From the NCBI GenBank assembly GCA_000004985.1, contig GG738900.1: 64,000 nucleotides of DNA, one strand, 5' to 3'. Made by a program: the position numbers and the translations under genes. The notes beneath the pieces are model-generated. The model saw nothing but the letters and a program-made list of their open reading frames with translations. It was not told where the DNA came from and did no database searches. The DNA comes from Naegleria gruberi (lineage: Eukaryota). Of this stretch, positions 1 to 28,218 are shown piece after piece. Numbering within the stretch: position 1 is the stretch's first letter; every line of letters starts with the position of its first letter.

Positions 1-6
1 GTCAAA

Positions 7-831: not shown

Positions 832-845
832 ATTATATCAATAAA

Positions 846-914
846 NNNNNNNNNNNNNNNNNNNNNNNNNNNNNNNNNNNNNNNNNNNNNNNNNNNNNNN
901 NNNNNNNNNNNNNN
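846..914. other. assembly gap (N-run)
   Basis: Contiguous run of N. Confidence 0.95.
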
Positions 915-999
915 TGTGTTAAATAACAAAATAATACATTATAGAATTAATGTTAGTAAACTCAATAAAGATTTATAATAATTTATAGTAACATCATGA

Positions 1000-2440: not shown

Positions 2441-2768
2441 ACGTCTACAAATAAAAAAATAAAATTATATAAAAATACAATTAAATTATTAATTTGTTAA
2501 TCCATCAAATCATTAGTATAATCATGGGTGTCAAAAAGATTGTATGATGGATCTGGTGTTGAAGATGTTTGTCTATTTTCTTGGTGTTCCACTCATTGCT
2601 AGCAAAACTTTCTCAAGAGAGGCTTGGCGCGTACAGATAAAAATAACAAAAAAAATAGCCTTCCTCTCCCGCCACATTCATCTTGCCTCTTCTTCATCTC
2701 CTAATAGTGATCGAAATTAATACAAATAATTATTTGGACAAATTTAATACATTGATGGAGAAGTTATA

Positions 2769-5342: not shown

Positions 5343-5465
5343 TAATTTATAATAATAAAGAATTTAATTGAAACTCTCTAGGTATCCCAACAACATCCAA
5401 ACAAAACACAAACAGATATATACCACTAACAGTCCATTAAGGATAAATATTCATAATGAATGTAT

Positions 5466-5537
5466 TCCCGTGTAGTCCAATGGCTAGGATACCTGGCTTT
5501 CACCCAGGAGGTCCGGGTTCAATTCCCGGCATGGGAG
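5466..5537 (+). tRNA. tRNA-Glu (anticodon UUC)
   Basis: 72-nt cloverleaf TCCCGTGTAGTCCAATGGCTAGGATACCTGGCTTTCACCCAGGAGGTCCGGGTTCAATTCCCGGCATGGGAG with anticodon loop CTTTCAC. It is followed by a T-run typical of a Pol III terminator. Confidence 0.85.
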
Positions 5538-5580
5538 AATACTTTTTAATGTTGATAAAACCAATTTTATTTGGTATTGA

Positions 5581-6621
5581 TTAAGGAATTTGGAGAATAA
5601 TTTTTCCAACAGTTCTATTGGATTCACTCATTTTTTGAGCTTGTGAGGCTTGATCCAAACTTAGAATATGAATTGGAATGTCTTTCCATAAACCACTTTC
5701 ACTCAACCACTTTAAGATAACTGCCAATTGATCACCATCCCTTTCAGCATACAAATTTTTGGCTCTTTCACTTCCAAAAACCTTTCCAGAAATTCCTTGA
5801 GGTGTGTGAACAATTGTAACAAATTGTGATTCTTCATCTTGTTTGAGCAATTCAATGGAATAGTATTCTTGATAGGATCCAACAAAATCCAACACTATAT
5901 CAAAGGTACCTTTCAAAGATTCCAATTCATGAGTGAGATATTCCTTTCCCTTAGTGTAATCTAACACTTGATCAGCTCCCAACTTTCTAACAAAGTCTGC
6001 ATTCTTTGCTGATGAAATGGTAACAATCTTTTCAGCATTGAAATAATTCTTGGCAAGTAAAATACCTGACATTCCAACACCACCACTTCCACCAATGATT
6101 AGAACTTGTTTTCCTCTCAAGGAGTCTTTTTGTCCACTCTTACTTGATGGATGTCTGAGGAAACATTGAAAAGCAGTCAAGAAAGTTACTGGACACGAGG
6201 CAGCAACTTGATGACTAATTGATTCTGGATTAAGAGCTGCTTGAGATTCAGAGCAGACAACATATTGACTGTATGTTCCTCTGATGTGTGTCATGTTACA
6301 ACCACAAACTGAATCACCAATCTTGAATTTGGTTACTTTGGAACCAGTGGCAACTACAATTCCACTAACTATTCGAAGGTAAGAATGAAAAATATTAAAC
6401 TTACAATCAACTCCAAGAATCGTTGGATATGAATTAATATAAAACCCATATTGTCTTACTTTACAATCTAATGGATTAACTCCAGCATATTGATTTCTAA
6501 CAAGAATGTCATCTTCATTCAATTGTGGTAAATCAAATTTATGGTCAATTACAATGTCATCAGCACTGACATTGGCAGATTTAATAATTGCAGCAGTTTG
6601 AAAGGTTGGAAGACTTGACAT
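5581..6621 (-). CDS. zinc-type alcohol dehydrogenase-like / quinone oxidoreductase (MDR superfamily)
   Basis: NAD(P)-binding motif LIIGGSGGVGMSGILLAK and an N-terminal GroES-like region. A probable 36-nt in-frame intron (gtaagtttaatatttttcattcttaccttcgaatag) lies at about 6372-6407 on the minus strand; removing it restores the conserved ILGVD-VSGIVVATGSKV motif. Confidence 0.8.
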   Translation of the reverse strand: MSSLPTFQTAAIIKSANVSADDIVIDHKFDLPQLNEDDILVRNQYAGVNPLDCKVRQYGFYINSYPTILGVDCKFNIFHSYLRIVSGIVVATGSKVTKFKIGDSVCGCNMTHIRGTYSQYVVCSESQAALNPESISHQVAASCPVTFLTAFQCFLRHPSSKSGQKDSLRGKQVLIIGGSGGVGMSGILLAKNYFNAEKIVTISSAKNADFVRKLGADQVLDYTKGKEYLTHELESLKGTFDIVLDFVGSYQEYYSIELLKQDEESQFVTIVHTPQGISGKVFGSERAKNLYAERDGDQLAVILKWLSESGLWKDIPIHILSLDQASQAQKMSESNRTVGKIILQIP

Positions 6622-7009
6622 TTTAGAGATGTGTATTCTTTTTTTATGATTTGAATTTTGAATTGCTTATCCAGTTAAAAAAGTTGACTTGTTTTTATAG
6701 TGTTTTGAAAAGTGTGCGCAGCAGAAATAATGTATTCTATCGCGGTAATTAAGCAACCAATCAGAAATGGAGCGCTGATTTTGGGATATTTTGACTTTCG
6801 CAAGGTTAATTTTTGATTTTCTTGTCAAGGTTCACCATCACCAGCAAATAGCTGTATTAGTAGCTGTAGTTCTTTTACTTGCTTTTGTAAAGTTCATACT
6901 TTACAAAAAAAATGCTCAAACGGAATGAAGGAGGCCGAGTTGTGATTTTCTTGGATTTTTCTTTGGAATCAAATTTGCTTTTGCAAAAATTCAAAGACAA
7001 ACTACATCA

Positions 7010-8698
7010 TTGAAGGAATATTGTAAGAAACGTGATGAAATATTAAACAAAAGACCAGAATTTATTCCATTGGAGTTTTATCGGGATTGTCAAGTGTTGG
7101 TTAAATATCCACATTTATTGGAGAATTTGCTGATTACAACGGATAGGGAATTTATTTTGTATTTTGTTAGATCGAGGGATGATCACATTCATTCAGTTTG
7201 TAGAGCTATTTCAGATACTTTGAAATGTGATGAATTATTTATTAGACAAGCCATTCAAGCTAATTATCAAATGTTTAAAGTTCTTCTTGAAAAACGTAAT
7301 CAAGACTACAACAGAAAAAGAACAAGCAAGATACGTAGAGGTCGATTCAAAGACGAGGGAAGTGATGACTCTGGAGATGAGGATAATATATCAATTGACT
7401 GGGAGTATTTCATTAATTTGAATCCAAAAGTTCTAAGATTTGTCAAAAATAGATGGAAAGAGTTGGATAGAGAAGTAGTTTTACAAGCTTTGCGAAAAGA
7501 TATTATAGCAATTTATTCATTGCAAGCTCTTGACAGAGAAATGGCATTGTTGGTAGTTGAAACCAATCCATTGGCTTTGAAATATGAACATGGAGTTTGG
7601 CAGAATGATAAAGAAATTGTACTGAAAGCAATATCACAAAATAAGAACCTACTTGTGTATGCATGTGATTCGATCATTGAAGAAGTGTTAAGAAACAGAG
7701 AACTCATTGAATATTCTCAGGAGGATGTCATTAATTTAGTATTGAATGGTGTGAAGGAAAAGCCATCTTTATTCAATTACCTTCCCGAACATATGAAAAC
7801 AAATCATGAATTTGTTATCAAATTGGTAGAATTGGACACAAGAATATCCGAGTTCATTCCAGAATCTTTAAAACAAAACAGAGAATTTCTAATGGAACTG
7901 GTCAAATATGATAGAAATGCATTTTACAATTGTAAAGATATGGATCTGAGGGGGAGTAGACAATTTTTATTGAACGCCCTATCCACTTACAGGTTCTCAC
8001 TCTCCAGTGCTCCATCTCATCTCAAAGATGATAAGGAATTTGTAATGGAATGTTTAACTGCATATCCTGCAGACTTGGATGAAGCTTCATCTCGTTTGAG
8101 AGATGATGAACAAGTGGTAGAATTGGTTTTAAAAGAATTTAATAACGCATCAAATAGATTGAAAGATGATAAGGACTTTGTAATGAAACACATTGAAGAA
8201 TTTCCTCAAATGTATCAGTCATTGAGTCAGAGATTGAAAAGCGATAAGGAAATAATTCTAAAATGTGCATCTGGAGGTGGAGTTATTTCAAATGGTTATT
8301 TCTTTCACGACGATGACTTTGTATTAGAATTGGTGGAAAGAAATGCTCATATTGTTGAAACACTGGGAAAGATAACGCCAGAGTTTGCTAAGAAATGTAT
8401 TGAGCGAAATGGCTTTTGCTACCATTTATTGAAACAACACTCTATGGTAACAGAATCTGACGAATTGGATCAATTAGCAGCTCTTTCTCGTGGATATTTA
8501 GCTGATAAACATACTGAGGATATTAGACCAACATATGGATTTCACAAAATCAAAACTCGCACAAGCTATGAGGATAGAGAAATTGTGGATTCATGGATTA
8601 AGAAGAGATTGGAGAAGCAATATGATGGGTTATATATTTCACTCAGCTCGCCAATATTTGTAAAGGGAAAGTTTGTGAATACCCACATTAAGGGATGA
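7010..8698 (+). CDS. DUF4116 repeat-containing protein (5' end uncertain; an upstream exon is probably missing)
   Basis: Repeated ~35-aa units of the form LKDDKEFVMECLTAYPADL.. / LRDDEQVVELVLKEF.. / LKDDKDFVMKHIEEFP.. / LKSDKEIILKCAS. The frame is open upstream to 6929 with no in-frame ATG. Confidence 0.55.
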   Translation: MKEYCKKRDEILNKRPEFIPLEFYRDCQVLVKYPHLLENLLITTDREFILYFVRSRDDHIHSVCRAISDTLKCDELFIRQAIQANYQMFKVLLEKRNQDYNRKRTSKIRRGRFKDEGSDDSGDEDNISIDWEYFINLNPKVLRFVKNRWKELDREVVLQALRKDIIAIYSLQALDREMALLVVETNPLALKYEHGVWQNDKEIVLKAISQNKNLLVYACDSIIEEVLRNRELIEYSQEDVINLVLNGVKEKPSLFNYLPEHMKTNHEFVIKLVELDTRISEFIPESLKQNREFLMELVKYDRNAFYNCKDMDLRGSRQFLLNALSTYRFSLSSAPSHLKDDKEFVMECLTAYPADLDEASSRLRDDEQVVELVLKEFNNASNRLKDDKDFVMKHIEEFPQMYQSLSQRLKSDKEIILKCASGGGVISNGYFFHDDDFVLELVERNAHIVETLGKITPEFAKKCIERNGFCYHLLKQHSMVTESDELDQLAALSRGYLADKHTEDIRPTYGFHKIKTRTSYEDREIVDSWIKKRLEKQYDGLYISLSSPIFVKGKFVNTHIKG

Positions 8699-8933
8699 TT
8701 ACCCATTATGTGAAACCTTACTAATTTGAATTTGTCTTTATTTTGGATAAAGTATTGAAACTAGGAAGCTCAGCAAACTTCAACACTCTTCTTTTTATAA
8801 TTTTTAAAATGTATGCAATAATGTAGCAAGTACATGATATTTATGAAATTATAATTCCAATTTTCATTATTATTAGTAATTATTCCCATTTCTTTATTTG
8901 TCCATTAAGGATAAATTTTCAAAATAAATGTAT

Positions 8934-9005
8934 TCCCGTGTAGTCCAATGGCTAGGATACCTGGCTTTCACCCAGGAGGTCCGGGTTCAATTCCCGGCAT
9001 GGGAG
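8934..9005 (+). tRNA. tRNA-Glu (UUC), second identical copy
   Basis: Identical 72-nt sequence to the copy at 5466-5537. About 35 nt of upstream flank is also shared. Confidence 0.85.
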
Positions 9006-9091
9006 AATACTTTTTTAATTATGGACTTTTAATATTGTTAAAAATTAATTTTATGTTACCACATGAGGTATTGAATAATTTAGAATTTGCA

Positions 9092-9301
9092 TTAAGGAAT
9101 GTGGAGAATGATCTTTCCAACAGTTCTATTGGATTCACTCATTTTTTGAGCTTGTGAGGCTTGATCCAAACTTAGAATGTGAATTGGGATGTCTTTCCAT
9201 AAACCACTTTCACTCAACCACTTTAAGATAATTGCCAATTGATCACCATCCCTTTCAGCATACAAATTTTTGGCTCTTTCACTTCCAAACAATTTCAACA
9301 A
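9092..9301 (-). pseudogene. duplicated 3' fragment of the oxidoreductase gene at 5581-6621
   Basis: About 185 nt at 9115-9297 is near-identical to 5606-5790. The ORF carries only the last ~69 aa of the oxidoreductase (ERAKNLYAERDGDQLA..ILKWLSESGLWKDIPIHILSLDQASQAQKMSESNRTVGKIIL) and no upstream exons. It sits downstream of the duplicated tRNA-Glu. Confidence 0.7.
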
Positions 9302-9365
9302 AAATCTATGAGCCTTTTCTTGTCACATTAATAAAAATCTGCCATGTTGTTCAATTAACCACAAT

Positions 9366-10187
9366 TTAATAACACTCATCGTCAGGATAATCCACAATTC
9401 CATACATGAGAATATTGGAATAATCACAATTTATAACAACAGAATCCATTACTTCCTTTTCCATTTGCTTTTTCGTTTCCTCTGCTTGTTTACGATACAA
9501 TTTAGCTTTTTCTTTACCCACCTCAAAGGTTGCTACGCACATTGATTCATAATCCATGTCAGATACATGGTTACGCTCAACAAGCTTTGAGTATAGATGC
9601 TTATCAGTCCTATAGATGTATTCCACAATTTTGCTTCTACATGGTTTTGCATGTTTCGAAATATCTGTGTGGGTATCGGTTGAGATCAGATTCATGTCGT
9701 TAGATATTGGGCCAACAATTGAAAGAACTACAAACGAGGATAAATCATTGTAAAAAGCCATGTCCATAGTAAGAATCACATTCTTGTTTGTTTTCAATTC
9801 ATAGGTTGTTCTTGTAACGCTAAAACAAAATGAATACCCTTTCGAATGGATAAGAAATTCTAAATTTTTGCACATGTTGGACTTTTGGCACTCTTTCCTC
9901 TTGTAATTCAAGGTTTGGTTACACTTTGTGGTATGTTTGAGCGAAATTTGAGGCTCCTTAGAATAGGTTGTTTTTTCCTTCAGCCAGTAATTTTGTTCCA
10001 TTAAAACATATTCTGATAAATCATAAAAAGTTTCATTGTAGGATGTTTTTGATTTGAATGTAAACAGAGGAAGAAGACTTTTTTCTAACTGCTCCTTGCC
10101 CATAATAAAGTTGAATTTTGTAATGATTGCACTGTCGTGGGCAACATGATCTAATAAACAATCTTGATATACGAATCTTGTGTTCAA
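9366..10187 (-). CDS. hypothetical protein; the true start is probably internal (MGKEQ...) or spliced
   Basis: 273-codon open frame starting at a TTG in the track, with no recognisable family. The upstream end abuts the 5S rRNA gene on the same strand. Confidence 0.3.
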   Translation of the reverse strand: MNTRFVYQDCLLDHVAHDSAIITKFNFIMGKEQLEKSLLPLFTFKSKTSYNETFYDLSEYVLMEQNYWLKEKTTYSKEPQISLKHTTKCNQTLNYKRKECQKSNMCKNLEFLIHSKGYSFCFSVTRTTYELKTNKNVILTMDMAFYNDLSSFVVLSIVGPISNDMNLISTDTHTDISKHAKPCRSKIVEYIYRTDKHLYSKLVERNHVSDMDYESMCVATFEVGKEKAKLYRKQAEETKKQMEKEVMDSVVINCDYSNILMYGIVDYPDDECY

Positions 10188-10220
10188 TGTATGATTGTTT
10201 AAAAGTTATTAAGGTAAAAA

Positions 10221-10340
10221 GACTACAGCACCACAGGTTCCCAAGTTGTCTCCAACCTCAGTACTGATGTGGCTCGACGATGCTTACCTTCTCAAATCGG
10301 ACGGGATGAGATGCATTCATCGTGATATGGCCGTAGCCAT
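10221..10340 (-). rRNA. 5S ribosomal RNA gene
   Basis: The minus-strand sequence is (AT)GGCTACGGCCATATCACGATGAATGCATCTCATCCCGTCCGATTTGAGAAGGTAAGCATCGTCGAGCCACATCAGTACTGAGGTTGGAGACAACTTGGGAACCTGTGGTGCTGTAGTC followed by TTTTT. It matches the eukaryotic 5S consensus, including box A, the loop-C region and the ...GGTGCTGTAG 3' end. Confidence 0.9.
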
Positions 10341-10424
10341 TCATTTATTTAAGTTCTGAGTCATAAATCTTTAAGCAACAGTTAGGATTGTAAGGAATAT
10401 ATTTTAATCAAGATTTTGGTTTGT

Positions 10425-10520
10425 TCTTCACTATGAACATGCTTGACTCACAACGTTGATCACAGCTAAGCCATTGTGAAAATAATTGAGTCAAGCATGT
10501 TCATAGTGATCAACGTTGTG
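10425..10520. repeat. compound inverted repeat: cactatgaacatgcttgactca + caacgttgatcac ... tgagtcaagcatgttcatagtg + atcaacgttgtg
   Basis: A perfect 22-bp arm and a 13-14-bp arm each recur as reverse complements about 60 bp away, in A-B...A'-B' order. Confidence 0.6.
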
Positions 10521-10741
10521 CAGGATGTAATAGTTAAAGTTCATACTTTGCTCAAAATGGGAAGTTACTACCCTTAATAAGACCAATTTAAAAGAAAACA
10601 TTCATGTTCAATTTAGGAACTTTTAGAATTTTGACTTATTTTATTATCATCCACAAAGAAACCATTGTGCCAGCTCTTGTTGGTGCTAAATATGCTTGAT
10701 TTGGGTTATGTAAATTTCAAAGTGCAGAACATTTGAAAAAA

Positions 10742-13700
10742 ATGCTGAAAAACAGCATAACAGTAGATTTGAGCGGTAAGGACGGAGAAGATGGTCATCA
10801 AGGCAAGAGGTAAGAGTACATACCTCAATTTTTTTGATGTTAATATGTTGCCGAATTAGTGGACGTAATGGTGAAGTGGGAAAGGTAATGTTTCTAATCT
10901 CCCTTAATCATCATAAAATCACTGTTGTAAAATAGTCAGGGAAAAGTGGACAAATATCTGCCTTAAATAATGGAAATGGAAGTCATGGAGAACCAGGAGG
11001 ACCGTAAGTATATATTGCTGGAGTGAAATTAGCCATGTGTTAATAGAGGTGGAGATGGAGAGAATGGTGGAAAGTAAGTTCTAGCTGTTATTGAGTACTT
11101 GACCTTATTTAATATTCCTTCTCAACAACAGTGGAAAAAAGGGGCAACACGCAACAGCTGGTGGAAATATTTAAGTAAAAATTGAGGGATCCAATCACAA
11201 GTTAATCACTTTGAGTGGAAGTATCAATGATTCTGTGTGTTTGAATGATGGTGCTGGACAAGTTTTGGTGTTTCTGGCGAATGGTGGAAATGGTGGAAAG
11301 TGAGTATCAGTGTAGCTTTGATTTGAAGTGCTTACAATTATAGAGGTGGACGTGGAGGACCAGGTGGTAAGTTGCTGAATAGCAAACACGACTGAGAATG
11401 TAATTCATTCAGGAATGGGGGGAGTCGGCGGAAAAGGAGGAACTGGAGCAAGAGGTGGTAATGGTAGCTCTGGAGGTAATGGTATGAATGGTCAAGATGG
11501 TGGCAATGGAGGAAAGTAAGTATTGAATGATTGAGACAATTTTGAAACTAATAATTATTTCAGTGGTGGCGTGTAAGGAGAAATACAAGTTTAGTTAGTT
11601 GATTGAAATTTAGTGCTGGAAAAGGAGGAAATGGTGGAGAGTAAGTTTTAATAATTGGTTGGAAATTCATATGTGCGTTTAACAAGTGGAGGGGAAGGAT
11701 CCAAGTAGGTTTTTCAATTATTACAACTATTTTAATGTGGAATAGTGGTGGAAATGGTGGAAATGGAGGAAGTATTCTTATTGAAACAAATAATGCTTCC
11801 TTGTTGAAGTTTGTCAAAGCAGAAAGTCAACCAGGTAAAGGAGGAATGGATGGAAAAGGTGGCTCTGCAGGAAGTGCAGGTAAAGGAGGAGAGAAAGGAC
11901 CTGGAGGACCTGGTGGTAGAGGTGGTGCAGGAGGAGCTGCAATGGGAAGAGGAATAATCAATACAAGATCTGGATCCAATGGAAGGAATGGATCAGATGG
12001 AAAATCTGGACAAAAAGGTCAAGAAGGAAGGAAGGGAAATCCAGGACACACTGGACAAGATGGTACACCAGGAAATTTAACCATTAGAGTCTATGATCCT
12101 CTTACTAATCAACTTGTGGAGGAAGGTCATTCAATTTATAATTTGGTGGTAACAACATTCGAATTGTGTGGCTATGAAAATGATGGAATTTTTGAACCAG
12201 ATGAAAATGTCTTTATTACCAACGTTGGTGTTAAGAATCAAGGAGGATTGACATTACCATCAGGTTCAGTTCTCTCATTTCCAAGCACTCAAACATTTAT
12301 TTCAAACGGTGAATGTTATGTTTTGGAGAAGAATTTGGCACCAGGCGAATTCTTTTCAATTCCTTTCCAATTTTATGGTCGAGTTGTTGGAAGGAAACAA
12401 AAACAATTTGGCCCTTTCAAGTCAACAATTAGCATTCAATCAAGTGCTTGTCTGTTAACTTCTCCATTTAGTGAAGGTTTTGTTAAGAAGGAATATCCAG
12501 TTCAGTATCCAATAGTATTGGAAAGTGTGAAAGTTCCTAAAAGTTTGGGAAGAAATGAAAAAGGAACAGTTACAATCACCGTAAAGAATCAATCTCTTAT
12601 CAATTATGGCTCTTCATTGGGTGATGGATACAGAATTAAGTTTTGTTTAACTCTGGATTCAACGTATATCATTCTAACAGAAACAAGCGCAACTAATATA
12701 TTTGAAGAGGAAATTCCCTTCATCCAAGCAGGAATGTCATACTCTAGAACGTTTAACATTGAAACAACTATCAATGCCCAATTCTATGAAACCATTCCAA
12801 TTCAAACAAATTTATTTTTGAGAGGACATCCTATTGAGGAATCATTGAACTCCATTCGTATTCAACCAACATACATTCCAACTAATCTCGATTCTCCAAA
12901 TCCTTTCGATGTGCTCTTCTTCTCAGATAAGCACATTAATAGGCAGGAATTTTCAAATTACATGTCCCTGCTTGGTAGAATAGGATTGAACGTGAATGTA
13001 TGGGATATTGAGAGATACGGTGGACTATCTTATAATAATAAGGGTAAGAGACATACAAAATCATGGATTGATGGTGGTTATGAAGGTAAAATGATAATAA
13101 TGCCTCTTATGGAACAAGGCTCTGAAAAACAAATGGCTGTCTCAGATATTTTCCAACATTTCAGGGGCAAAAATTGGCAAAATGATTCATCAAAACCAAA
13201 CAATGGATCTATCGTTTTTATCGGTAACCCTTCTGATTCATTCAAAAGTCAACTCTTTGGCGAATGCTCAGCCCAACAAATCCCAGAATCTGAACTAAGA
13301 GAAATGTTTCTGCTTTCTGAACCGAATGAAAGCTCAATGCTTAAGAAAGCAACAGAGTTTATTAAATCCCTCAATAAGACACATCCATCAAGGGTTTATA
13401 GAACTGAAAATGTGTTATTCAATCCTCAAAAAGATGGCTCATTATCAAAAACTTTATTAGGATCAGCTGATTATAAGGAATTACCCTTAAGCACTGCTGA
13501 TGCTTTATATTTCATTCCAACAAAGAGTGGAAACTCTTCTGGATTCATGAACGGAGGTATTACACTTCAAATTGAAAGCAAATCAAATATTGGAAAATTG
13601 CTTAACACTATTCTATATTCACTTCCTGTTGAGAAAAAATTGGAATTGTTAAGGAAACCAACCGAATGGCTTTCCAAAGTTCAAATTAAGGATGAAAATG

Positions 13701-13960
13701 GTGATTTACTTAATTATGTAACTTGTATTATCTTTGCTCTAAGCTTTAATCTGTTTTTGGAAATAATTTACAACGATGAAAATGGAAGATTTTCAACGGG
13801 TATTGAAGCAGATTTTGAAGCACATTTTGATGAATATAAGAATCATCCTCAATCCAAACAAATTGTTGAAACTCTATATTTGGTATTAAAGAAACTTGGC
13901 AGTGAATTAAAATGGAGAGGAACATCGGTACCTAGCATTAAGGAAAGGAAAAACCTATGA
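10742..13960 (+). CDS. collagen-like / Gly-rich secreted protein. About 9 mini-exons encode the GGxGG-rich N-terminus, followed by a large 3' exon that begins near 11746.
   Basis: ATG at 10742. Serial short exons at about 10742-10809, 10860-10884, 10936-11003, 11047-11073, 11216-11299, 11344-11366, 11413-11515, 11614-11640, 11687-11704 and 11746-13960 have GTAAGT-type donors and stay in phase. They encode ...GKDGEDGHQGKRSGRNGEVGKSGKSG...GGNGGNGG. The large exon has a true G-X-Y run (GSDGKSGQKGQEGRKGNPGHTGQDGTPG) followed by a ~600-aa globular region. Confidence 0.65.
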
Positions 13961-15060
13961 AACTGTTTACAAAGATTTGAAAAGCATTCTCCTCAAGATT
14001 TCATCGGAACCTGCTGAATTTTTGAAGAAGGAGACCAAGACTCGTATTGGTTCTATTTCAACGGATCACTTCTTATGTCAGTTGGAGAATTTCACTAGAC
14101 CACTATTGGAAAGTTATCATTTGGAAATGGAGAAGGAACTTAGTGTGGATGGAGGAGATCATGGACATTCTCATTGACATCCTCATTGAAAAATATCACT
14201 GGAATGAAGTTGTATTATTACTCAGTTTGGTGAACTGTGCAATAAAAAAACAACTTTTAAATTCATAAAACTTTTATTGTCGTTTAAGTACCTTACTCAA
14301 CCAGATACAATAATAATGCAATTTCAAATGGAGCCAGTGCGACATCTCTAATTTTACTTGGAATTCAAATTATTCTTCAAGATAGCCCTCCACACTTGAA
14401 TAAATATTCTCTCTCACGACAGTATCAGTAACTTCTTCAAATCCTTCAATATTATTTTCCTCATCATCATCGTCACTATATTTACTAGGATTCACTTGTC
14501 CCTCTCCAGCTTTACGAACCAATTTTTGTACTTCGTAGATAATGGCATAAATTCCATCTTCATCATTACTCTTTGGTTATTTATTCTCTTTGGTTAATCT
14601 TTTCATTACATTGCTGATTTGTGTGCTAACTTCATCATCACCTGCATCAGTATACATTCCATACATTTTTTTCTTTTGTGTGGCTGGTATGTTAAAACAA
14701 TGATGAACTTAAACATCCTAAAGGTTTACATTCGGTGAACATAAACAATTCTAGAAAAAACGAAATTTTGTAATGGCATTCTGAGTTCACATTCAATTTT
14801 TATCAGTTTCCATTCAATACAACTTTCCATCTATACCTCTAAATAGACTGGTTAATTGTTTTACTTCTGATGTAACATTTACAATGACACATAATCAAGC
14901 AAATCTTAGAGATAGATATTCGTAGAATTAGTTGTTACTGTGAAAAACAACCAACTTCCCAAACTAATCTTCGGAGTTGTTTTTGGAATTTTGTCAACTC
15001 CTCAACTTCTTTAAAAAGAAGGACATTATGATAATCTTATACAAGAAAAAAACAACAAAG

Positions 15061-18000
15061 ATGAATCACAAAGGTTTTGCATTGCTTCTTGTGTTAACAT
15101 GTCTGTTGTTTATTACCATTCATCCAATAATGACTAGTGAACAAATTATTCGAAACCTTGCCGGTCAAGGAATATGTGATGGTCATTTATCAACAAATGC
15201 ACCAGTCAATCCCAGTGATTGTGCCTTTTTGGATGAAGAAATGTTAATTGCAGATGCCACTAATCATAGAATTCGTAAAGTTTTCACAAATGGAACAATT
15301 GTAACCATAGCTGGAAATGGATTTGCTGGTTACAATGGAGATGGTTTAGATGCAACAAGTGCTCAATTGAACAATCCAGTTGGCATTTATGTTGATACCA
15401 ATAGTAGAGAAGTTTACATTGCTGATTCTAATAATCATCGAATTCGTAAAATATTACAGAATGGAAAAATTACAACAATTGCTGGAACAGGAATTGCTGG
15501 CTACAATGGAGATGACAAAAGTGCAGACAGTGCCCAATTGAACACCCCAAGTGGAATTGTTATTGATCCAAATAATGGAGAAATTTTCATTTCAGATTCT
15601 AAAAATCACAGAATTCGTAAAATTTTACAAAATGGTAAAATTACAACAATTGCTGGAACTGGAGAAGCTGGTTACAATGGAGATGGAATTGAGGCAAAGT
15701 TTGCAAAATTGTATCTACCAAACGGAATTGATTTGTATGAGAAAGAGTTGTTTATTGCTGATCAAAATAATCATAGAATTCGTAAAGTTTCGCTTGATAC
15801 TGGACTAATTTCAACTATTGCTGGAAATGGAAATTCAGGTTACAATGGAGATAACATTCTGGCAACAAACTGTAAATTGAGTTTACCTGCAGGAGTTAGA
15901 TACGATTCGAAAAGAAGAGAAGTTTACATTGCTGATTCCAACAACCAAAGAATTCGTAAAATATTAGAAAGTGGAATAATTGTAACAATTGCTGGAACAG
16001 GAGAAGCTGGATTTGATAATATTCTCAATGCTACCCAATCAAAGGTTAATCATCCTAATAGTGTTACTTTGAACGAATTAGGGGAAGTTTTCATTTCAGA
16101 TTCACAAAATTATCGAGTACGAAAGATTACAACAGAAAGTGGAATAATTACAACAATTGTAGGAAATGGATTTGAAAAGTATTGCACAGATTTAGCTAGT
16201 AACACACCATTGTTTTATCCTCGTGGTATAATTTCGAATGAAAATGGAGAATTTTTCTATGCCGATTCTAGCAACCATTGTATTCGAAAAATTCTGACAA
16301 ATGGTACAATTCTTACAATTGCTGGAACAGGTACTAAGGGTTACAATGGAGATGGAATTGAAGCAACAAGTGCTCAATTAAATACTCCTCACGATGTTGC
16401 ATTAAACTTGGCAACTGGCGAGATTTACATTGCAGATACGGAAAATAATAGAATAAGAAAAATTTTGACAAATGGTACAATTACAACAATTGCAGGAACT
16501 GGAGATTATGGATACAATGGAGATGGAATCATGGCTGTAGATGCATGGTTGAATGAACCGAGTGGTGTTGAAATTGATTCCACTAGCGGTGAAGTTTTCT
16601 TTTCTGATACTGAAAATTTCAGAATTCGAAGAGTTTCGAATAGTGGAATAATTACAACAATTGCAGGAACTGGAAAATCAAAATTTAATGGAGATGGTAT
16701 GGCAACAGACACGAATCTTGCTACTCCAACTGAAATTCAATACGTTCCAAGTACTACTGAAATTTATTTTGCTGATTCTGGAAATAATAGAATTAGAAAA
16801 TTTACTATAAATGGAATGATGACAACTATTGCTGGAACAAGCACAAGTGGATATAATGGTGATAATATGCCTGCAACACGTGCTTGGTTGAATTTTCCAG
16901 TTGGTGTAACATACGATCCAAAAACCAATCAAGTTTATATTGCCGATTTATCTAATCACAGAATTAGAAAAATTCTGACAAATGGTACAATTACAACCAT
17001 TGCTGGAACAGGAAAAGGAGGTTATAATGGTAATAACTTGACAGCCTTATCCACTCAAGTGAATGGACCTCATGGAATGATACTACAACCGAATGGTGAT
17101 GTAATCTTTTCAGATAGCACCAATAATGTCATTAGAATTATCAGATCTGATCAAATTTATTGTAATGGAACATTGTCAAGTGATTTGAATGTTTGTAATG
17201 GTCGTGGTTGGTGCATGGAGAGTGGAAAATGCTCTTGTCAAGACGGATGGATTGGTGATTATTGTTCAGAGCCAACATGTGAAAATGATTGTTATGGACA
17301 TGGAAGATGTGTTTCGAATAATACATGTGAATGTGAATATGGTTGGGATGGAAACTCTCACTGTTCTCAATTTTCATGTGGTGGATTGAATAATTGTAAC
17401 TCGAATGGTTTATGTGTTTCGAATAATACTTGCAGTTGCCAATCAGGATGGGCTGGAACTGATTGTTCTCAATTTACTTGTTCTGGCGCTAGCAATTGTT
17501 CAGATCATGGTTCCTGCATTTCGAATAATACTTGTCATTGCAATTCTGGTTGGAAAGGAAATGCCCAATGTTCCCAATTTACTTGTGAACTCACAAATGA
17601 TTGTTCGAATCATGGCTTGTGTGTTTCGAATAATACTTGTCAATGTAGTTCAGGTTGGAATTTCATTAATTGTTCCATCAAAGAATGTCTCATTTCAATT
17701 GTTTCAGGTTCAAGAGAATTGATATGTGGAAATGATAATTCTTCTGGTCAACTGAAAACATTTAGCAGAATAACGACTCCAGTAATTGAAACAACAAGTT
17801 TCGAATTGAATGAAAATCAACATGTAAATGTTGATATTGGATCAAGAATAATGAATTTGGATCTATCTCAAGACAAGTATTTCATAACCTCTTCATGGAC
17901 CAATTCGAATAATTTATTCTTTACCAATGTTTCCAATTTACTAATTCAAAACTCAGGTTCATCACTTATTCAAGCAGAACTTTCAACAAAAATCAAGTAT

Positions 18001-18789
18001 TCTTTCACGCATCATTCAAATCTTGATATCATGTCATTTAACTATAATTGTTTAAGATTTGACATCCTGTCACATTTGTGGACAAATCAATCCATAACAA
18101 CAAGCATTTCTCCACAAACTAACTCCATTACATGCACAACTATATTCATTTCTTCAGTAGTTGTTCAAAGAACTTTAATCCCTTCACCATCAATCTCACC
18201 AAAACACTCATCAAATCCATTTCCATCAATTTCACATGAAAATTCAATTCCACTCCCAAGCGATGAGACAATTACATTGAATATCCAACCTGGAGAATCA
18301 ATTCTCTATCAAATAACTCTTCCATCCATGAAAAGACTTTCACTTTCGTGTAAAACAATTTCAGGAAGAGATTTAAATTTGTTTATTGGAGAAAATTTCA
18401 AACCGTCTTATGAAATGTACTCAAAAGTTATGAATTCTAATCAGGAAATGGATTTTGAAAATTGGAAGTCGATATACCAGGTGTTTTACATTCGAGTTCA
18501 AGGTTTGAAAGATTCAACAACTCAATTCACTATAAGAGCTTCAATTAGTCAACTGAGACAAGTGAATTCTTCGAGTGGAGCAAGAAATGATAATTACACC
18601 ATTGGATTAATCGTCTCAAGTGTTATTTCACTTCTATTATTAATCATTACCATCCTAACTGTTCTTAGTTGTGTTTTCTATTGGAGAAAGAAACGTAAAC
18701 TTATGGAAGAAACCAGAACGAAACTACTTTCAACTCCTAATTCGCTTCAGTATTCACCTCACCAACCGTATGAAATGGAGGAAGCATAA
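15061..18789 (+). CDS. type I membrane protein with a signal peptide, 12 NHL repeats, about 6 tenascin-type EGF-like repeats, a Ser/Thr-rich stalk, one TM helix and a short cytoplasmic tail
   Basis: The signal peptide begins at MNHKGFALLLVLTCLLFITIHP. Twelve units of the form (A/S)DxxNHRIRKI...TIAGTGxxGYNGDG are followed by repeated CxNxGxCxxNNTCxCxxGWxGxxCSQF(T/S)C. The TM helix is IGLIVSSVISLLLLIITILTVLSCVFYW. The track ORF starts 84 nt upstream at a non-ATG codon. Confidence 0.8.
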   Translation: MNHKGFALLLVLTCLLFITIHPIMTSEQIIRNLAGQGICDGHLSTNAPVNPSDCAFLDEEMLIADATNHRIRKVFTNGTIVTIAGNGFAGYNGDGLDATSAQLNNPVGIYVDTNSREVYIADSNNHRIRKILQNGKITTIAGTGIAGYNGDDKSADSAQLNTPSGIVIDPNNGEIFISDSKNHRIRKILQNGKITTIAGTGEAGYNGDGIEAKFAKLYLPNGIDLYEKELFIADQNNHRIRKVSLDTGLISTIAGNGNSGYNGDNILATNCKLSLPAGVRYDSKRREVYIADSNNQRIRKILESGIIVTIAGTGEAGFDNILNATQSKVNHPNSVTLNELGEVFISDSQNYRVRKITTESGIITTIVGNGFEKYCTDLASNTPLFYPRGIISNENGEFFYADSSNHCIRKILTNGTILTIAGTGTKGYNGDGIEATSAQLNTPHDVALNLATGEIYIADTENNRIRKILTNGTITTIAGTGDYGYNGDGIMAVDAWLNEPSGVEIDSTSGEVFFSDTENFRIRRVSNSGIITTIAGTGKSKFNGDGMATDTNLATPTEIQYVPSTTEIYFADSGNNRIRKFTINGMMTTIAGTSTSGYNGDNMPATRAWLNFPVGVTYDPKTNQVYIADLSNHRIRKILTNGTITTIAGTGKGGYNGNNLTALSTQVNGPHGMILQPNGDVIFSDSTNNVIRIIRSDQIYCNGTLSSDLNVCNGRGWCMESGKCSCQDGWIGDYCSEPTCENDCYGHGRCVSNNTCECEYGWDGNSHCSQFSCGGLNNCNSNGLCVSNNTCSCQSGWAGTDCSQFTCSGASNCSDHGSCISNNTCHCNSGWKGNAQCSQFTCELTNDCSNHGLCVSNNTCQCSSGWNFINCSIKECLISIVSGSRELICGNDNSSGQLKTFSRITTPVIETTSFELNENQHVNVDIGSRIMNLDLSQDKYFITSSWTNSNNLFFTNVSNLLIQNSGSSLIQAELSTKIKYSFTHHSNLDIMSFNYNCLRFDILSHLWTNQSITTSISPQTNSITCTTIFISSVVVQRTLIPSPSISPKHSSNPFPSISHENSIPLPSDETITLNIQPGESILYQITLPSMKRLSLSCKTISGRDLNLFIGENFKPSYEMYSKVMNSNQEMDFENWKSIYQVFYIRVQGLKDSTTQFTIRASISQLRQVNSSSGARNDNYTIGLIVSSVISLLLLIITILTVLSCVFYWRKKRKLMEETRTKLLSTPNSLQYSPHQPYEMEEA

Positions 18790-18843
18790 ACTATTGAACT
18801 GTTTTATAAACACAAATAGAATTTATTGTAAAAGTTTAAAAAA

Positions 18844-21309
18844 ATGTCTCAACACCAAGTTGATTTTACCCTCGCGGATCTTCCCACTGAAATTCATCAT
18901 ACAATTTTTTACTACCTCGATTATGTTCGTGATATTTGTTGTGATCAGTTATTGTATGTTCCGATGATTGAAATGCCATCAACATTGGAAGAATATGAAC
19001 GGAATTGTATTGATCATGGTGAACAGGAATTTATTGATTTTGATCATCCTAGTCGCGTGCCTTTCTTTTTAGCCTGTCAATCACTGCTGAAATCTGTAAA
19101 ATCATTCAGACCAATAGTTTTGAATTTAACACTACCATCAACAGAAAGGGGGCTCTGCAGATATTATTTGGACAAGTTATATATTGAAACATTTCAAAGA
19201 ACTCCTTGGTTTAGAAGAGCAAAACCTGCATATCATTTTAGTAGTTATGATTGGAATGACGCATTTAGAGCACTATTTGAAAGGATGAAAAAGCTTTGTG
19301 GTGGTCATCCTTTGTTTAAAGTGGAATTTGTATCAGTTGCTTGTATTGTTGGCAGAAACTATACCTCTTTTGAATATGCTTATCATGGAGGATTTAATTT
19401 ACACAAACTTATGGATCTAGTACCTAACCTTAAATATGCACTATTCGATTTCAACCCTTCATTAGTTTTATATGAAAGAAGTGAATCTTTGACCATTATT
19501 TATGCATCAAAGTCAGATTATTACCATTCAGCATTGGGACAAAAAAAGAACATTTACTTCTCATCCTTTGATTATGAAAGAAACCCAATAGTACCAATTG
19601 AAAAATTGAAAGGAGTATTTCCAAACAATTATCCAACAAATATTGAAATATTCCTCTACAATAGTATAGTATCAAATAATTTTAAGGAGGCAAAATATAT
19701 TATCAACAATTTTACTCTTAATGCTAATATATTTTCCTATATATGGAATACCAAATCTTACATGACACGAGAACTCAACTATTATAATCTTACACAAATT
19801 ATGGACATATTACATTTTTTTTACAAAAATTATCCATCTTTTAGAGTATTTAGAATTCCAATAGACAATATAGTATGCTTAAAACTAATTGTATCACAGC
19901 CATTTGTAGATATTCATGTTGGTAAGAATATTACCAAATTATTCCTAGAGAGAATGACTACTAAAGATGTTCAGGTACTATCTAGAGATTATAATGTTGA
20001 TTTTTCCAAACTTGGTAATTTCAAATTCTCTGCTAATTGTTTTTTAGAAACAAATTTACAAATAGAAAATACTTGTGATATTTTTGGTGTATCCACGGCT
20101 ATGTTTAGATTGGAAAGAGGCAGTAACATTATTGAGAAGGATAAGTTTGGAAATAATATCCTTCATTATATATTCTTGAATAGGAGAGGAAACAATTTAT
20201 CGCAATCTCTTTCAAAGTTTTCACAAGAGGAAATTAAATTACTTGGAAAAGAGCCAAACATTTTCGGTATCACTGCAAATGAACTAGCGCTTATTAAGGG
20301 ATGTGACTTTAAAATTGAAAGTTTTAATAAGAAATTCTGCTACGAGTCCTTTGGTAGAACCTGTGGCAGTTCAGATTTGCCTAGAATGTTACTATTTGAT
20401 GGATTAATGGTTAATGAACAAATCTATTGTGTATTTATGAATAATTTACAAACCAGTAGATATGATTATGATCAATATAGAGATATCAACTTTAGAGATG
20501 AAAATGGAAAGCATTTGGTTCACTATTCCCCAAATTGTTTTAGTGAAAACACAGAGTGTTTGGGTTTAGAATTGAAAGATATTATCTTTTGCAAAGATAA
20601 TAATCAAACAATGCCCATCCAAACATTTTACAATAGTTATCTTGTGGCTTTGGACAAGTTAGGACAAATTGAGAATATGCCCAAGTTGAACTTTTTTTCA
20701 TATACTGATAACTTTGGAATGTGTCGATATTTATATTTATTGATGAATTCCTATATTAATACTCAGTTATTGGTATCAGAAGCTGATACTATTGGATTTG
20801 ATTACTCTTCAGGTCAACCTGAACTTGTATCATTGTGTTCTCATTATTTGGATGGACTCTATCATTTTTCAATTGAAAAAAGCCCTTTGAAACAATTGAA
20901 AGGTATTAGATACTTTGGAAGTGTTGATGGAGATGATTTCTCACATTACGTATTGAGATATTATTTGGATTACATTAACAAAAACCCTACTTACTATCTA
21001 GACACTTCAACCCTCAAGGTTCTTATTGCTAGAGGACTAAAGTTTGATGTTGTTAGAAACTCACAAGGGCAAACAGCTTTTGATTTAATTGATCACTTAA
21101 CAGGGACGACACAATTGAAACATATGAAGAAAGTATGTAGAAAAGGCCGTACCACAAAATCCAAGGCATTACCCAAATTTACAATCAAACACAATCCAAT
21201 TCCAAAAGATGTTTTAATAGAGGATTCTGAAACAACACTTGTTGTTAAATCACAAAATGTTGCACCATTCCGTATTAGAATCAAACGCAGTTTAACATTT
21301 CACAAATAG
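18844..21309 (+). CDS. hypothetical 821-aa protein with an F-box-like N-terminus
   Basis: True ATG. The N-terminus LADLPTEIHHTIFYYLDYVRDI resembles the F-box LPxEI..xIF..L pattern. No family could be assigned to the rest. Confidence 0.5.
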   Translation: MSQHQVDFTLADLPTEIHHTIFYYLDYVRDICCDQLLYVPMIEMPSTLEEYERNCIDHGEQEFIDFDHPSRVPFFLACQSLLKSVKSFRPIVLNLTLPSTERGLCRYYLDKLYIETFQRTPWFRRAKPAYHFSSYDWNDAFRALFERMKKLCGGHPLFKVEFVSVACIVGRNYTSFEYAYHGGFNLHKLMDLVPNLKYALFDFNPSLVLYERSESLTIIYASKSDYYHSALGQKKNIYFSSFDYERNPIVPIEKLKGVFPNNYPTNIEIFLYNSIVSNNFKEAKYIINNFTLNANIFSYIWNTKSYMTRELNYYNLTQIMDILHFFYKNYPSFRVFRIPIDNIVCLKLIVSQPFVDIHVGKNITKLFLERMTTKDVQVLSRDYNVDFSKLGNFKFSANCFLETNLQIENTCDIFGVSTAMFRLERGSNIIEKDKFGNNILHYIFLNRRGNNLSQSLSKFSQEEIKLLGKEPNIFGITANELALIKGCDFKIESFNKKFCYESFGRTCGSSDLPRMLLFDGLMVNEQIYCVFMNNLQTSRYDYDQYRDINFRDENGKHLVHYSPNCFSENTECLGLELKDIIFCKDNNQTMPIQTFYNSYLVALDKLGQIENMPKLNFFSYTDNFGMCRYLYLLMNSYINTQLLVSEADTIGFDYSSGQPELVSLCSHYLDGLYHFSIEKSPLKQLKGIRYFGSVDGDDFSHYVLRYYLDYINKNPTYYLDTSTLKVLIARGLKFDVVRNSQGQTAFDLIDHLTGTTQLKHMKKVCRKGRTTKSKALPKFTIKHNPIPKDVLIEDSETTLVVKSQNVAPFRIRIKRSLTFHK

Positions 21310-21476
21310 CCTAGAAAATAATAAAATAAAGAAGTTCAGCAGAAACATCATATTGATAGATATCCAACAGGTGGTCTTACATCAGTATTAGCTGTTGATG
21401 AAAACAAAATGGGTTGGATTAACATTTAATTTGGCAGTTGACATTATTTCAATTAAGTTTTCTATTGGTTGAAAAT

Positions 21477-21697
21477 GACGGGAAGCCTGCCAGGAATATG
21501 ACGACAATCCCGCTACAGTCTTTGACTGTATGAACAGTGAAGGCAACGAAGACAGAATCTTGTTGGTTCAGGTTTTGTTTGAAGAAATTGTTAAAGTTGA
21601 TCAACCTCATATTTATTGAACATTTGTCATGTTGAAATGCATGATGCAAATTTTGGTTTCTCATATTCTGATCAATTCTAAATTGAAACTTCATTAT
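21477..21697. repeat. copy 1 of a ~230-bp conserved element of unknown nature (other copy at 44032-44270)
   Basis: The first ~70 nt (gacgggaagcctgccaggaatatgacgacaatcccgctacagtctttgactgtatgaacagtgaaggcaa) differs from copy 2 by 2 nt. The remainder is about 75-80% identical, with conserved blocks gttgatcaacct..tatttattgaacatt, tgatgcaaattttggtttc, tctgatcaa and attgaaacttca. Confidence 0.7.
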
Positions 21698-21716
21698 TTA
21701 CAATTTACTGAATTAT

Positions 21717-22004
21717 TTACAAGTTTTTAGATTTGGTAATTTTCTTAGTTGTGGTAGTAGATTGTTTAGCTCTCTTTTCAATTGAATTTTTAGAAGATCT
21801 TTTCACTGAAATTTGTTTACCATTTAAATTTGCATGATGATAATCAATATTATTACGATGTCTAGTTCCACTTATAATATTTGAAGTATCAATATCAAAT
21901 AATGGTAATCTTTTAGATAAATCAATTGGTTTAGATCTTGTCCATTCTGTTTTTGTTGGAATTCTATCTTCGGAAGAATGTGATGAAGTATTTCTAGCTG
22001 GCAT
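21717..22004 (-). CDS. small Ser/Asn/Thr-rich protein (95 aa), paralog of 22228-22443
   Basis: True ATG (MPARNTSS...). The motif DIDTSNIISGTRHRNNIDYHHANLNGK is shared with the divergently transcribed neighbour. Confidence 0.45.
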   Translation of the reverse strand: MPARNTSSHSSEDRIPTKTEWTRSKPIDLSKRLPLFDIDTSNIISGTRHRNNIDYHHANLNGKQISVKRSSKNSIEKRAKQSTTTTKKITKSKNL

Positions 22005-22227
22005 TTTGCTCTTAGTTCTTGTTATTAGGTTGTTTTGTTTTGTTGTGGAAATTTCATCATCCTATACCAGTTATCTATTTATTTCCATATTGATTTCCAC
22101 TAATTTTGTGATTCCGATTTTTAGTGGATTTTCCACTCATCACAAGAATTTGAATTTTTCTATTAATATTAAGGAAATTTAATGAAAATCAACAAACAAA
22201 AGAAAATAACAAAATAACAATAAGAAA

Positions 22228-22443
22228 ATGGTCTCAACAAGAAGAAATATGTATAATTCCTCCAATAATACTTCACAATTTAATTCCGAAATTTCTCTGG
22301 ATAATATTATTGGTGGAACAAGAAGAAGAAATTTAATTGATTACAAAACATTGAATTCTATTGGAAGTGAAACAAGCAAAACTTCCAAATCTCAATCACA
22401 TAACACTTTAGAAATGAGAAACAAACAATTCAAAATGTGGTAA
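22228..22443 (+). CDS. small Ser/Asn/Thr-rich protein (71 aa), paralog of 21717-22004
   Basis: True ATG (MVSTRRNMYNSSNN...). It contains EISLDNIIGGTRRRNLIDYKTLNSIGSE. The two motif regions are about 70% identical at the nucleotide level. Confidence 0.45.
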   Translation: MVSTRRNMYNSSNNTSQFNSEISLDNIIGGTRRRNLIDYKTLNSIGSETSKTSKSQSHNTLEMRNKQFKMW

Positions 22444-23243
22444 TCTCCATTTAACTCAAAATTTTGTAAACCTAGGCATTCATTGTAAATAAACCCAAAA
22501 TATTGATATAAAGGAATACTCTCCTAATCAAATAAATTGTCTTATTCAACAATATCGTTCCGTTTCAATAGCATAATAACAAAGAGTTGCATTCCTCCTC
22601 TTAATTTCCTTATCGTTAACTTTTCCATTATGAATCGTTTTTCCAAAGTAACTAGTTCTGCCAGTTTTAAAATGTAAGCAGTGTATTCAATTTTTAAATT
22701 GCAATAATGTACATGTTGTTTATCCTCATTGAAACATAATGAAATGAATTCCTTTTTGAAAAGAAGATTTTGGGATTCCTATTTACTTTGATATCACAAC
22801 ATCCATACATGCATGTTGAATGAGAGGGTGTTTACATGTCCGTGTAGTTTTTTTCATCATTGGCGGTTCCAAAAGTTACAACGAGTTCCCATCTAATTAT
22901 TTTAAGCAACACGATCAAGAGGGTTAAATGAGAATATTGTAAACTAATATCTCCCTTTTCCCTATGTGTTGTTATGAGTTCTATTCGATAGTTAGATGAT
23001 ACTGAGGTGTTACCATTCCTCTTACTGACTTCTCAATAAGGTTGTTCCACAAATGTTCAACCAATTCAATTCTCAGAAAACCATTGAACTCTATTAAACT
23101 CCATTGTAAATATTGTAATCTTACTCAGTCAAAATTACTATAAATTCAAATTGACAATTCTTTTTGATAAAAACAAAACAAACAAACAATAATATTCAAT
23201 ATTGAATTGTATCTGAAAACTCCTCAACAAACTTAAACTCAAA

Positions 23244-23780
23244 ATGACTCAACAAACTCACGAAGAATTATTCAATGAAAACATGTGTGGAAGTGGTTTG
23301 GCATTCAAGAAGGTAGTTTGTGAATTATTCAACAATCGTATTGTCCCTGCGACCAAGAATCTTCAACAAGTCAACCCAAAGATGATCATCTTGTTGGATT
23401 GGGCTTCTCTTGCTGCATTGCCAAGTGAAACCAAATACAAGTATGGTGATAGATTTGTTGAAGATACCCTGTTGAATAATTGCATCAAATTCTTAATTGA
23501 AAGTCCAAGATTGAGCAATATGAGTGAAATTGCCAAGGTTTTCATCAAGGATCCTGATTGTAAGGAAGTTTTTATGGGATTGGAAAAGTTGATTTTCAGA
23601 GTTGTACACAATGCTGATAGTAAGGAATCTTCAGGTTTCCTTGGATATTCTTACAAGGTTAATGGTACTGATTTGGTTGTCACTTTGGATTGCAATTTGA
23701 CTCTTGTTATGAAGGTTGCCAATGAAAGACAAAGCCCAACTGCTGATTCAGAAGCTAAAAAGTTGATTAATGCTTTCTAA
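23244..23780 (+). CDS. hypothetical 178-aa protein
   Basis: Clean single ORF with a true ATG. No family recognised. Confidence 0.45.
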   Translation: MTQQTHEELFNENMCGSGLAFKKVVCELFNNRIVPATKNLQQVNPKMIILLDWASLAALPSETKYKYGDRFVEDTLLNNCIKFLIESPRLSNMSEIAKVFIKDPDCKEVFMGLEKLIFRVVHNADSKESSGFLGYSYKVNGTDLVVTLDCNLTLVMKVANERQSPTADSEAKKLINAF

Positions 23781-23856
23781 TTTTTTAAATGGCAGTACTC
23801 TATGAATCAACATTGATTTACCTAATAAAAAACCTTTATTTTTGAATTGTCAAAAA

Positions 23857-23976
23857 GACTACAGCACCACAGGTTCCCAAGTTGTCTCCAACCTCAGTAC
23901 TGATGTGGCTCGACGATGCTTAACTTCTCAAATCGGACGGGATGAGGTGCATTCATCGTGATATGGCCGTAGCCAT
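23857..23976 (-). rRNA. 5S ribosomal RNA gene (second copy)
   Basis: It differs at 2 positions from the copy at 10221-10340 and has the same minus orientation and the same T5 terminator. The flanks are unrelated to those of copy 1. Confidence 0.9.
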
Positions 23977-24102
23977 TCATTTTCTTAATTTGTGATATAT
24001 AAAACATCTTCTTAAAATCTTAATGTTGAATAAGTCAATGAATTCTTTGTTCGCACACAGAATAGTAACTTTCAAATTCCGCTAAAAATTAGAACAAAAA
24101 AA

Positions 24103-24795: not shown

Positions 24796-24796
24796 T

Positions 24797-28196: not shown

Positions 28197-28218
28197 AAAG
28201 AAAATTTTACAATAAAAA

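Follow-up and report, generated by a model that had tools for sequence, protein, structure and literature searches.

Two solitary 5S rRNA genes among protein-coding genes of Naegleria gruberi, very probably members of a dispersed chromosomal family

Introduction

The 5S rRNA genes of Dictyostelium discoideum sit on the extrachromosomal rDNA palindrome, whilst Neurospora and Acanthamoeba are among the organisms in which 5S genes are dispersed. 5S sequence is also found in SINE3 and other 5S-derived SINEs, where it is accompanied by its internal Pol III promoter. Solitary dispersed 5S genes have been described in Schizosaccharomyces pombe (PMC3215682) and, in linkage with tRNA genes, in Leishmania (PMC6562600). 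In Naegleria, the annotation of the CERE (closed circular extrachromosomal rDNA element) comprises 18S, 5.8S and 28S genes only (PMC11075319), and a survey published in 2012 listed 279 putative 5S genes, apart from the rDNA unit, in the JGI Naegr1 assembly of Naegleria gruberi (PMC3369914; PLoS One 2012;7:e36878).

Here we have analysed a 64-kb stretch of DNA (64,000 nucleotides, referred to throughout as the window) for which a preliminary description had drawn attention to two near-identical 5S genes, viewed against the arrangement in Dictyostelium discoideum. That frame does not hold, as the DNA is nuclear DNA of N. gruberi (Heterolobosea): a UBE2T-like E2 gene beside one of the 5S genes (ORF 24103-24795) encodes a product that is 100% identical, over 230 aa and with 100% coverage, to an N. 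gruberi protein, the next best matches being from other Naegleria and from Willaertia. The window has a G+C content of approximately 33%, with long ORFs that are almost without introns.

Results

Two full-length 5S rRNA genes lie on the minus strand of the window

Scanning the window with Rfam model RF00001 at gathering thresholds gave two full-length 5S rRNA matches, both on the minus strand: copy 1 at 10220..10338 (98.5 bits, E 3e-20) and copy 2 at 23856..23974 (105.4 bits, E 4.4e-22). Both matches cover model positions 1-120 of 120, without truncation, and compare with a gathering score of 38. The coding region amounts to 119 nt in each copy, and a TTTTT run, the putative Pol III terminator, can be read directly from the minus strand at 10216..10220 for copy 1 and at 23852..23856 for copy 2, the first T of the copy 1 run being also the last residue of its Rfam match. 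The full-model matches and the T-runs bear out the earlier account of full-length minus-strand genes ending in five Ts, and the positions given there (10221-10340 and 23857-23976) are right to within 1-2 nt at each end, a difference that is immaterial. The copies are spaced 13,636 bp from start to start, and only two positions set them apart: copy 1 has T at nt 28 and G at nt 52, where copy 2 has C and T respectively. Both results are again in keeping with the 13.6 kb and two differing positions first reported.

Every helix of the three-arm 5S structure is present in the Rfam structure alignment of both copies, and the 9-bp helix I and two arms are reproduced in the ViennaRNA minimum-free-energy folds of each. 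No further 5S copy or fragment was found in the 64 kb by blastn or nhmmer with a 5S query. In all, five RNA genes were detected in the window at Rfam gathering thresholds (two 5S, two tRNA-Glu and one tRNA-Thr), and 18S, 5.8S and 28S genes (SSU/LSU) were absent at the same thresholds.

The shared unit includes promoter-like sequence upstream of the gene

The preliminary description held that the flanks of the two copies are completely different, such that the 5S gene alone is duplicated. This is true of the downstream flanks, which are unrelated (9/30 identical), and of the sequence beyond approximately -35, where identity drops to background (9/25 at -60..-36), but some 30 bp immediately upstream are common to both copies. 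Here, identity is complete nearest the gene (8/8 at -8..-1) and falls to 16/20 at -20..-1 and 22/30 at -30..-1. A repeat search extended the repeat to 152 nt of 94% identity, between 10216-10367 and 23852-24003. The shared unit is therefore the gene, its T-run and approximately 30 bp of upstream promoter-like sequence.

Within this region, which spans 10339..10373 (minus strand) for copy 1, we find AAATGAAT at -8..-1, CAGAACT at -20..-14 and TTTATGA at about -29..-23. For copy 2, where the region (23975..24009, minus strand) lies within the spacer that separates the 5S start from the divergent E2 gene (ATG at 24103), the corresponding elements are AAATGAAT at -8..-1, CACAAAT at -20..-14 and TTTATATAT at about -29..-21. 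Alignment with 5S genes from relatives shows a YAGAAYT motif recurring at about -20..-14 upstream of the genes of Willaertia magna (L002 and L003) and of a metagenomic Naegleria (L004), and an A/T-rich, TATA-like stretch at about -33..-24 is likewise found in these sequences; both features are lacking from the 5S gene of a GC-rich unrelated organism (L005). The motif is drawn from just four or five independent sequences, and these upstream elements may well represent promoter elements. The 2012 survey independently reported that N. gruberi 5S genes have a TATA box and an internal control region and end in T-run terminators (PMC3369914). Given that the same authors found no TFIIIA homologue in N. 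gruberi, an animal- or yeast-style reading of the internal control region is uncertain.

The relatives also have a comparable genomic setting. In Willaertia magna, the 5S genes are solitary and lie between protein genes, and the one full-length gene is found on L002 and again on L003. Searching metagenomes with a 34-nt core of the 5S sequence retrieved only two contigs, the Naegleria-like L004 and the GC-rich L005; the 5S gene of L004 differs by one base from copy 2 and lies 165 bp from a divergent hydrolase gene. Willaertia also has a 5S copy at 11053-11165 in L002/L003 that scores 48.9 bits and follows the E2 orthologue of Willaertia at a distance of 400 bp. Its first ~36 nt are unrelated sequence, and from about nt 37 onwards, T-run included, it equals the Willaertia 5S save for two substitutions. 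Either 5' truncation has made this copy a pseudogene, or it is a recombinant.

Both loci belong to a catalogued, dispersed family

Table S1 of the 2012 survey (PMC3369914) contains two entries on scaffold_56, R33731 at 42219-42335 (similarity 0.733) and R33445 at 55855-55971 (similarity 0.75). Their spacing (55855 minus 42219) is 13,636 bp, the same as in the window, and the copy at the lower coordinate has the lower score in both data sets. Copy 1 is R33731 and copy 2 is R33445, and since spacing and score rank agree, the window corresponds approximately to scaffold_56:32,001-96,000 of JGI Naegr1. Solitary chromosomal 5S genes had been presented in the preliminary description as worth noting in their own right; these two were already catalogued in 2012 among the 279, and dispersed 5S genes were already known in several eukaryotes, so the implied novelty falls away.

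Re-analysing Table S1, we count 264 near-full-length 5S copies on 113 scaffolds. The 151 gaps between neighbours on the same scaffold have a median of 33 kb and a minimum of 1,104 bp, with none under 500 bp, and 21 of them (14%) are shorter than 3 kb, whereas 2% would be expected if the genes were placed uniformly on 41 Mb. The genes are thus scattered, and there are loose clusters in which two or three lie a few kb from one another. Table 1 of the same paper marks a tandem arrangement as present for N. gruberi 5S, but head-to-tail arrays are absent from its own Table S1 coordinates.

Two other arrangements were considered and rejected. A tandem 5S array is incompatible with two copies in 64 kb that lie 13.6 kb apart with ORFs between them, and with the lack of any Table S1 gap below 1,104 bp. 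A 5S gene linked to the rDNA is incompatible with a window that holds no large rRNA genes and with a CERE annotated without 5S.

We therefore favour, with a probability of roughly 0.93, the reading that both copies are members of the dispersed chromosomal 5S gene family of N. gruberi, each forming a self-contained Pol III unit. Such a unit would extend over approximately 160 bp, with a TATA-like A/T-rich stretch at about -30, the conserved YAGAAYT at about -20 and the initiator-proximal AAATGAAT; the 119-nt coding region, ahead of the T5 terminator, would supply the internal control region, in which box A lies at +50 and an element resembling box C at +80. Judged from these features, either copy could be transcribed by Pol III, and the RNA would be expected to fold as a canonical three-arm 5S, enter the large ribosomal subunit and so be incorporated into ribosomes. 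In Naegleria the large rRNA genes, the other half of the rRNA gene complement, are carried on a multicopy extrachromosomal circle, the CERE. Because the CERE carries no 5S, the supply of 5S RNA would on this model fall to a few hundred solitary chromosomal genes in short intergenic spaces.

Copy 1 is a minor variant and copy 2 belongs to the modal class

Copy 2 has zero non-standard pairs in the Rfam alignment, and it matches the published box A consensus (PMC3369914) exactly at +50, whereas copy 1 has one mismatch to that consensus, which is T52G itself. The same substitution turns a G.U wobble between model positions 25 and 53 into G.G, flagged by Rfam as non-standard, and C28T falls on a highly conserved unpaired position. 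At +80 both copies have two mismatches to the box C-like consensus patterns of that survey, whose intermediate-element pattern is too loose to inform. By our own count of the rows in Table S1, the 0.75 similarity class, which holds copy 2, accounts for 161 of 279 entries, and the 0.733 class, which holds copy 1, for 27. Copy 2 is a member of the modal sequence class.

It could be argued from these differences that copy 1 is a decaying or silent variant, in effect a young pseudogene, with 5S rRNA contributed by copy 2 only. An Rfam score 7 bits below that of copy 2, the disruption of both the 25/53 pair and the box A consensus by T52G, the alteration of a conserved loop position by C28T and the small size of its similarity class (27 rows against the modal 161) would all fit this picture. 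However, copy 1 retains the whole of the upstream motif (8/8 at -8..-1) together with its T5 terminator, its predicted fold is no less stable than that of copy 2 (-45.3 vs -41.5 kcal/mol), and a class of 27 rows could instead mean a tolerated type of variant. Position 52 varies between species in 5S alignments, which also weighs against a silent copy 1. We regard silencing as unlikely. Copy 1 is a two-substitution minor variant whose activity is uncertain and may be impaired, and both copies are ordinary, probably working 5S genes.

The copies do not resemble retroposed elements or assembly artefacts

Dispersed 5S sequences might also arise as SINE3-like, 5S-derived SINEs or as LINE-mediated retropseudogenes, in which a 5S head is joined to a LINE-related tail. 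In favour of this, Naegleria genomes contain non-LTR retrotransposons with endonuclease and reverse-transcriptase domains (L009 and L010), and the Willaertia copy in which the first ~36 nt are replaced is what one would expect from 5' truncation. The window copies, on the other hand, are full length. The non-5S 3' tail by which the preliminary description proposed to recognise a SINE was not found, as the terminator follows directly with nothing between it and the 3' end of the gene and with unrelated sequence (9/30) beyond, and neither copy has a poly-A, A-rich or simple-repeat tail or a common 3' module. When the 90-nt upstream and downstream flanks of six 5S loci were compared by local alignment, no target-site duplication reached significance at any of them; for the window copies, 72-99% of shuffles equalled or beat the direct-repeat scores. 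In addition, the ~30 bp of upstream sequence is conserved across genera, and a copy made through RNA would not carry it. Retroposition is in our view very improbable, and is effectively refuted for the two window loci.

An assembly artefact or chimera, such as a collapsed or misplaced 5S repeat, can be given negligible weight: multicopy genes commonly cause misassembly and nothing more specific speaks for it here, but each copy has unique, coherent flanks that reach intact genes, the copies differ at two bases, the E2 gene, at 128 bp from copy 2, shows synteny with a further four Naegleria contigs, a published catalogue that is independent of this analysis lists the same two loci 13,636 bp apart, and similar solitary 5S settings occur in independent Willaertia and metagenomic Naegleria assemblies.

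Genes and repeats around the two copies

Returning to the reading of both copies as members of a dispersed chromosomal family, the description of these genes as solitary and interspersed with Pol II genes is upheld by their surroundings, in which intergenic spaces are short. Copy 2 occupies an intergenic space of 322 bp: the stop of ORF 23244-23780 lies approximately 70 bp from the terminator, and on the other side 128 bp separate the 5S start from the ATG of the divergent E2 gene. Copy 1 is flanked by ORF 9366-10187, with a TTG start, and by a plus-strand DUF7932 gene. The former is the same-strand ORF that had been noted close to the end of copy 1; it exists, but only as a mechanical TTG-start ORF without a Pfam match. 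Between the copies there are five substantial ORFs, two of which have Pfam matches (DUF7932 and NHL/EGF).

The glycine-rich DUF7932 gene (10743-13960, plus strand) has an apparent start at approximately 10743 and several very short Gly-rich exons ending in GTAAGT, which precede a 741-aa ORF at 11735. These short exons account for the GC skew of 0.35 at 10-12 kb. A homologue search, in which low-complexity sequence saturated the candidate list, did not recover a Naegleria orthologue of this gene.

The tRNA genes found by Rfam comprise two identical tRNA-Glu(UUC) genes on the plus strand, #1 at 5466-5537 and #2 at 8934-9005, and, on the minus strand at 48147-48235, a tRNA-Thr(UGU) gene that contains an intron. 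The distance from copy 1 to a tRNA-Glu gene is 1.2 kb, and a stretch of 5 kb takes in both tRNA-Glu genes and this one 5S gene. The tRNA-Glu genes belong to a DNA-level segmental duplication of ~400 bp between 5432-5801 and 8900-9312 (97% and 92% identity, with indels), which carried the 3' end of an ADH-like gene (5581-6621, minus strand) along as a fragment beside tRNA-Glu #2. The duplicated unit in this case is ~400 bp in size, vs ~150 bp for the 5S genes.

An inverted repeat was said in the preliminary description to follow copy 1. The repeat is real, at 10423-10520, but by the direction of 5S transcription it lies upstream of copy 1, at a distance of 85-180 bp. It consists of a 23-bp perfect stem (10428-10450/10487-10509) and an interleaved 15-nt pair (10449-10463/10506-10520), with a DNA fold z-score of -6.2 and two arm matches that were absent from every shuffle of the window. 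Both arms hold TGACTCA/TGAGTCA, an AP-1/GCN4-like sequence. The repeat is situated approximately 220 bp upstream of the putative ATG of the DUF7932 gene; it has no second copy in the window and no visible tie to the 5S gene.

Two further features were observed in passing. The small divergent ORFs at 21717-22004 (minus strand) and 22228-22443 (plus strand) have a common motif, IISGTRHRNNIDY and IIGGTRRRNLIDY respectively, suggesting that a short coding segment has been duplicated in inverted orientation. Close by, a dispersed repeat of ~215 bp is present at 21477-21687 and again at 44032-44249, 22.5 kb away, with a 70-nt core of 99% identity (GACGGGAAGCCTGCCAGG...), flanks of 83-85% identity and more G+C than its surroundings. 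The core folds on the minus strand with a z-score of -3.1, and a permissive Rfam search of the copy at 21.5 kb gave only sub-threshold C/D snoRNA-like matches, such as snoZ194 (24 bits; gathering score 50). This repeat could represent a small RNA gene or a fragment of a gene.

A segment specific to N. gruberi has Pol III genes at both ends

Comparison with other Naegleria by tblastn places both 5S genes in a region that is peculiar to N. gruberi. The window is collinear with N. lovaniensis PYSW02000027 (L001) at 1-5342 (a conserved gene, OST3/6, RPS20 and PP4R3) and again at 24034-31594 (E2, NECAP/DUF1681, adenylate kinase and further genes), and the interval between PP4R3 and E2 in N. lovaniensis contains a single UCH gene. 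In one metagenomic Naegleria (L006) UCH lies directly before E2, and in another (L007), a close relative judging from ~90% nucleotide identity where the end of the PP4R3 coding sequence was aligned (~70 bases), PP4R3 and E2 are only 86 bp apart. The intervening segment of 18.7 kb, which spans ~5374..24085 with breakpoints set by local alignment to L007 and which holds both 5S and both tRNA-Glu genes, is therefore absent from the PP4R3-E2 interval of three other Naegleria. No 5S or tRNA gene was found on any of these three contigs or on L008.

The segment starts 92 nt before tRNA-Glu #1 and ends 111 nt past the start of 5S copy 2. With the former on the plus strand and the latter on the minus strand, both terminal Pol III genes face inward. 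Besides these, the segment contains the ADH-like gene, a DUF4116 repeat protein, the DUF7932 gene, the NHL/EGF protein and ORFs without a family match; no transposase or reverse transcriptase was detected in it with Pfam. No terminal inverted repeats were found on it, so it is unlike a DNA transposon. A second indel, involving CLC genes that are present in L001 and missing near 29171-29324 of the window, has no adjacent Pol III gene.

A search with the ADH-like gene returned only paralogues, at no more than 52% identity. The paralogue loci of N. lovaniensis (L009) and N. fowleri (L010), 44 kb in total, contain no 5S or tRNA gene, a result that is uninformative on the 5S organisation of those species. 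These loci carry non-LTR retrotransposon ORFs at syntenic positions (13994-18407 in L009 and 18115-21092 in L010), with Exo_endo_phos plus RVT_1 and RVT_1 plus RNase_H domains and with ADH-like and RNA ligase genes as neighbours.

It is tempting to regard dispersed Pol III genes, both 5S and tRNA, as markers and perhaps agents of recent segmental rearrangement in Naegleria. As a suggestion formed post hoc from one locus this is rather doubtful, and what we have is one clean case of Pol III genes bounding a lineage-specific segment. If it did prove general, changes in gene order and the birth and death of 5S genes in the Naegleria lineage would be driven in large part by ectopic recombination or targeted integration at some 270 5S loci and at many tRNA loci.

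Discussion

As a discovery the presence of two solitary 5S genes carries little weight, and what the analysis secures is the firm placement of the window in N. gruberi together with two qualifications to the literature. Firstly, the 5S genes are chromosomal, though 'all rDNA' has been said to be on the CERE. Secondly, the published coordinates themselves describe a dispersed and not a tandem 5S arrangement.

Our results agree with the 2012 catalogue (PMC3369914) in the spacing of the two loci, their similarity rank, the TATA-like upstream element, the internal control region and the T-run terminators. Comparative synteny, the -20 motif and the question of which single copies are variants are not treated in the catalogue. 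Compared with SINE3-like elements, the window genes are without a LINE-related tail, terminal repeat or target-site duplication and have kept the full 5S structure.

The closest parallels are with Leishmania and S. pombe, which N. gruberi resembles in having solitary 5S genes that are interspersed with Pol II genes and have no linkage to the large rDNA. Leishmania differs in its 9-11 copies, which are systematically beside tRNA genes, whereas N. gruberi has approximately 260-280. With Dictyostelium discoideum the likeness is confined to the large rRNA genes, which in N. gruberi are also extrachromosomal; the 5S genes, by contrast, are chromosomal and dispersed.
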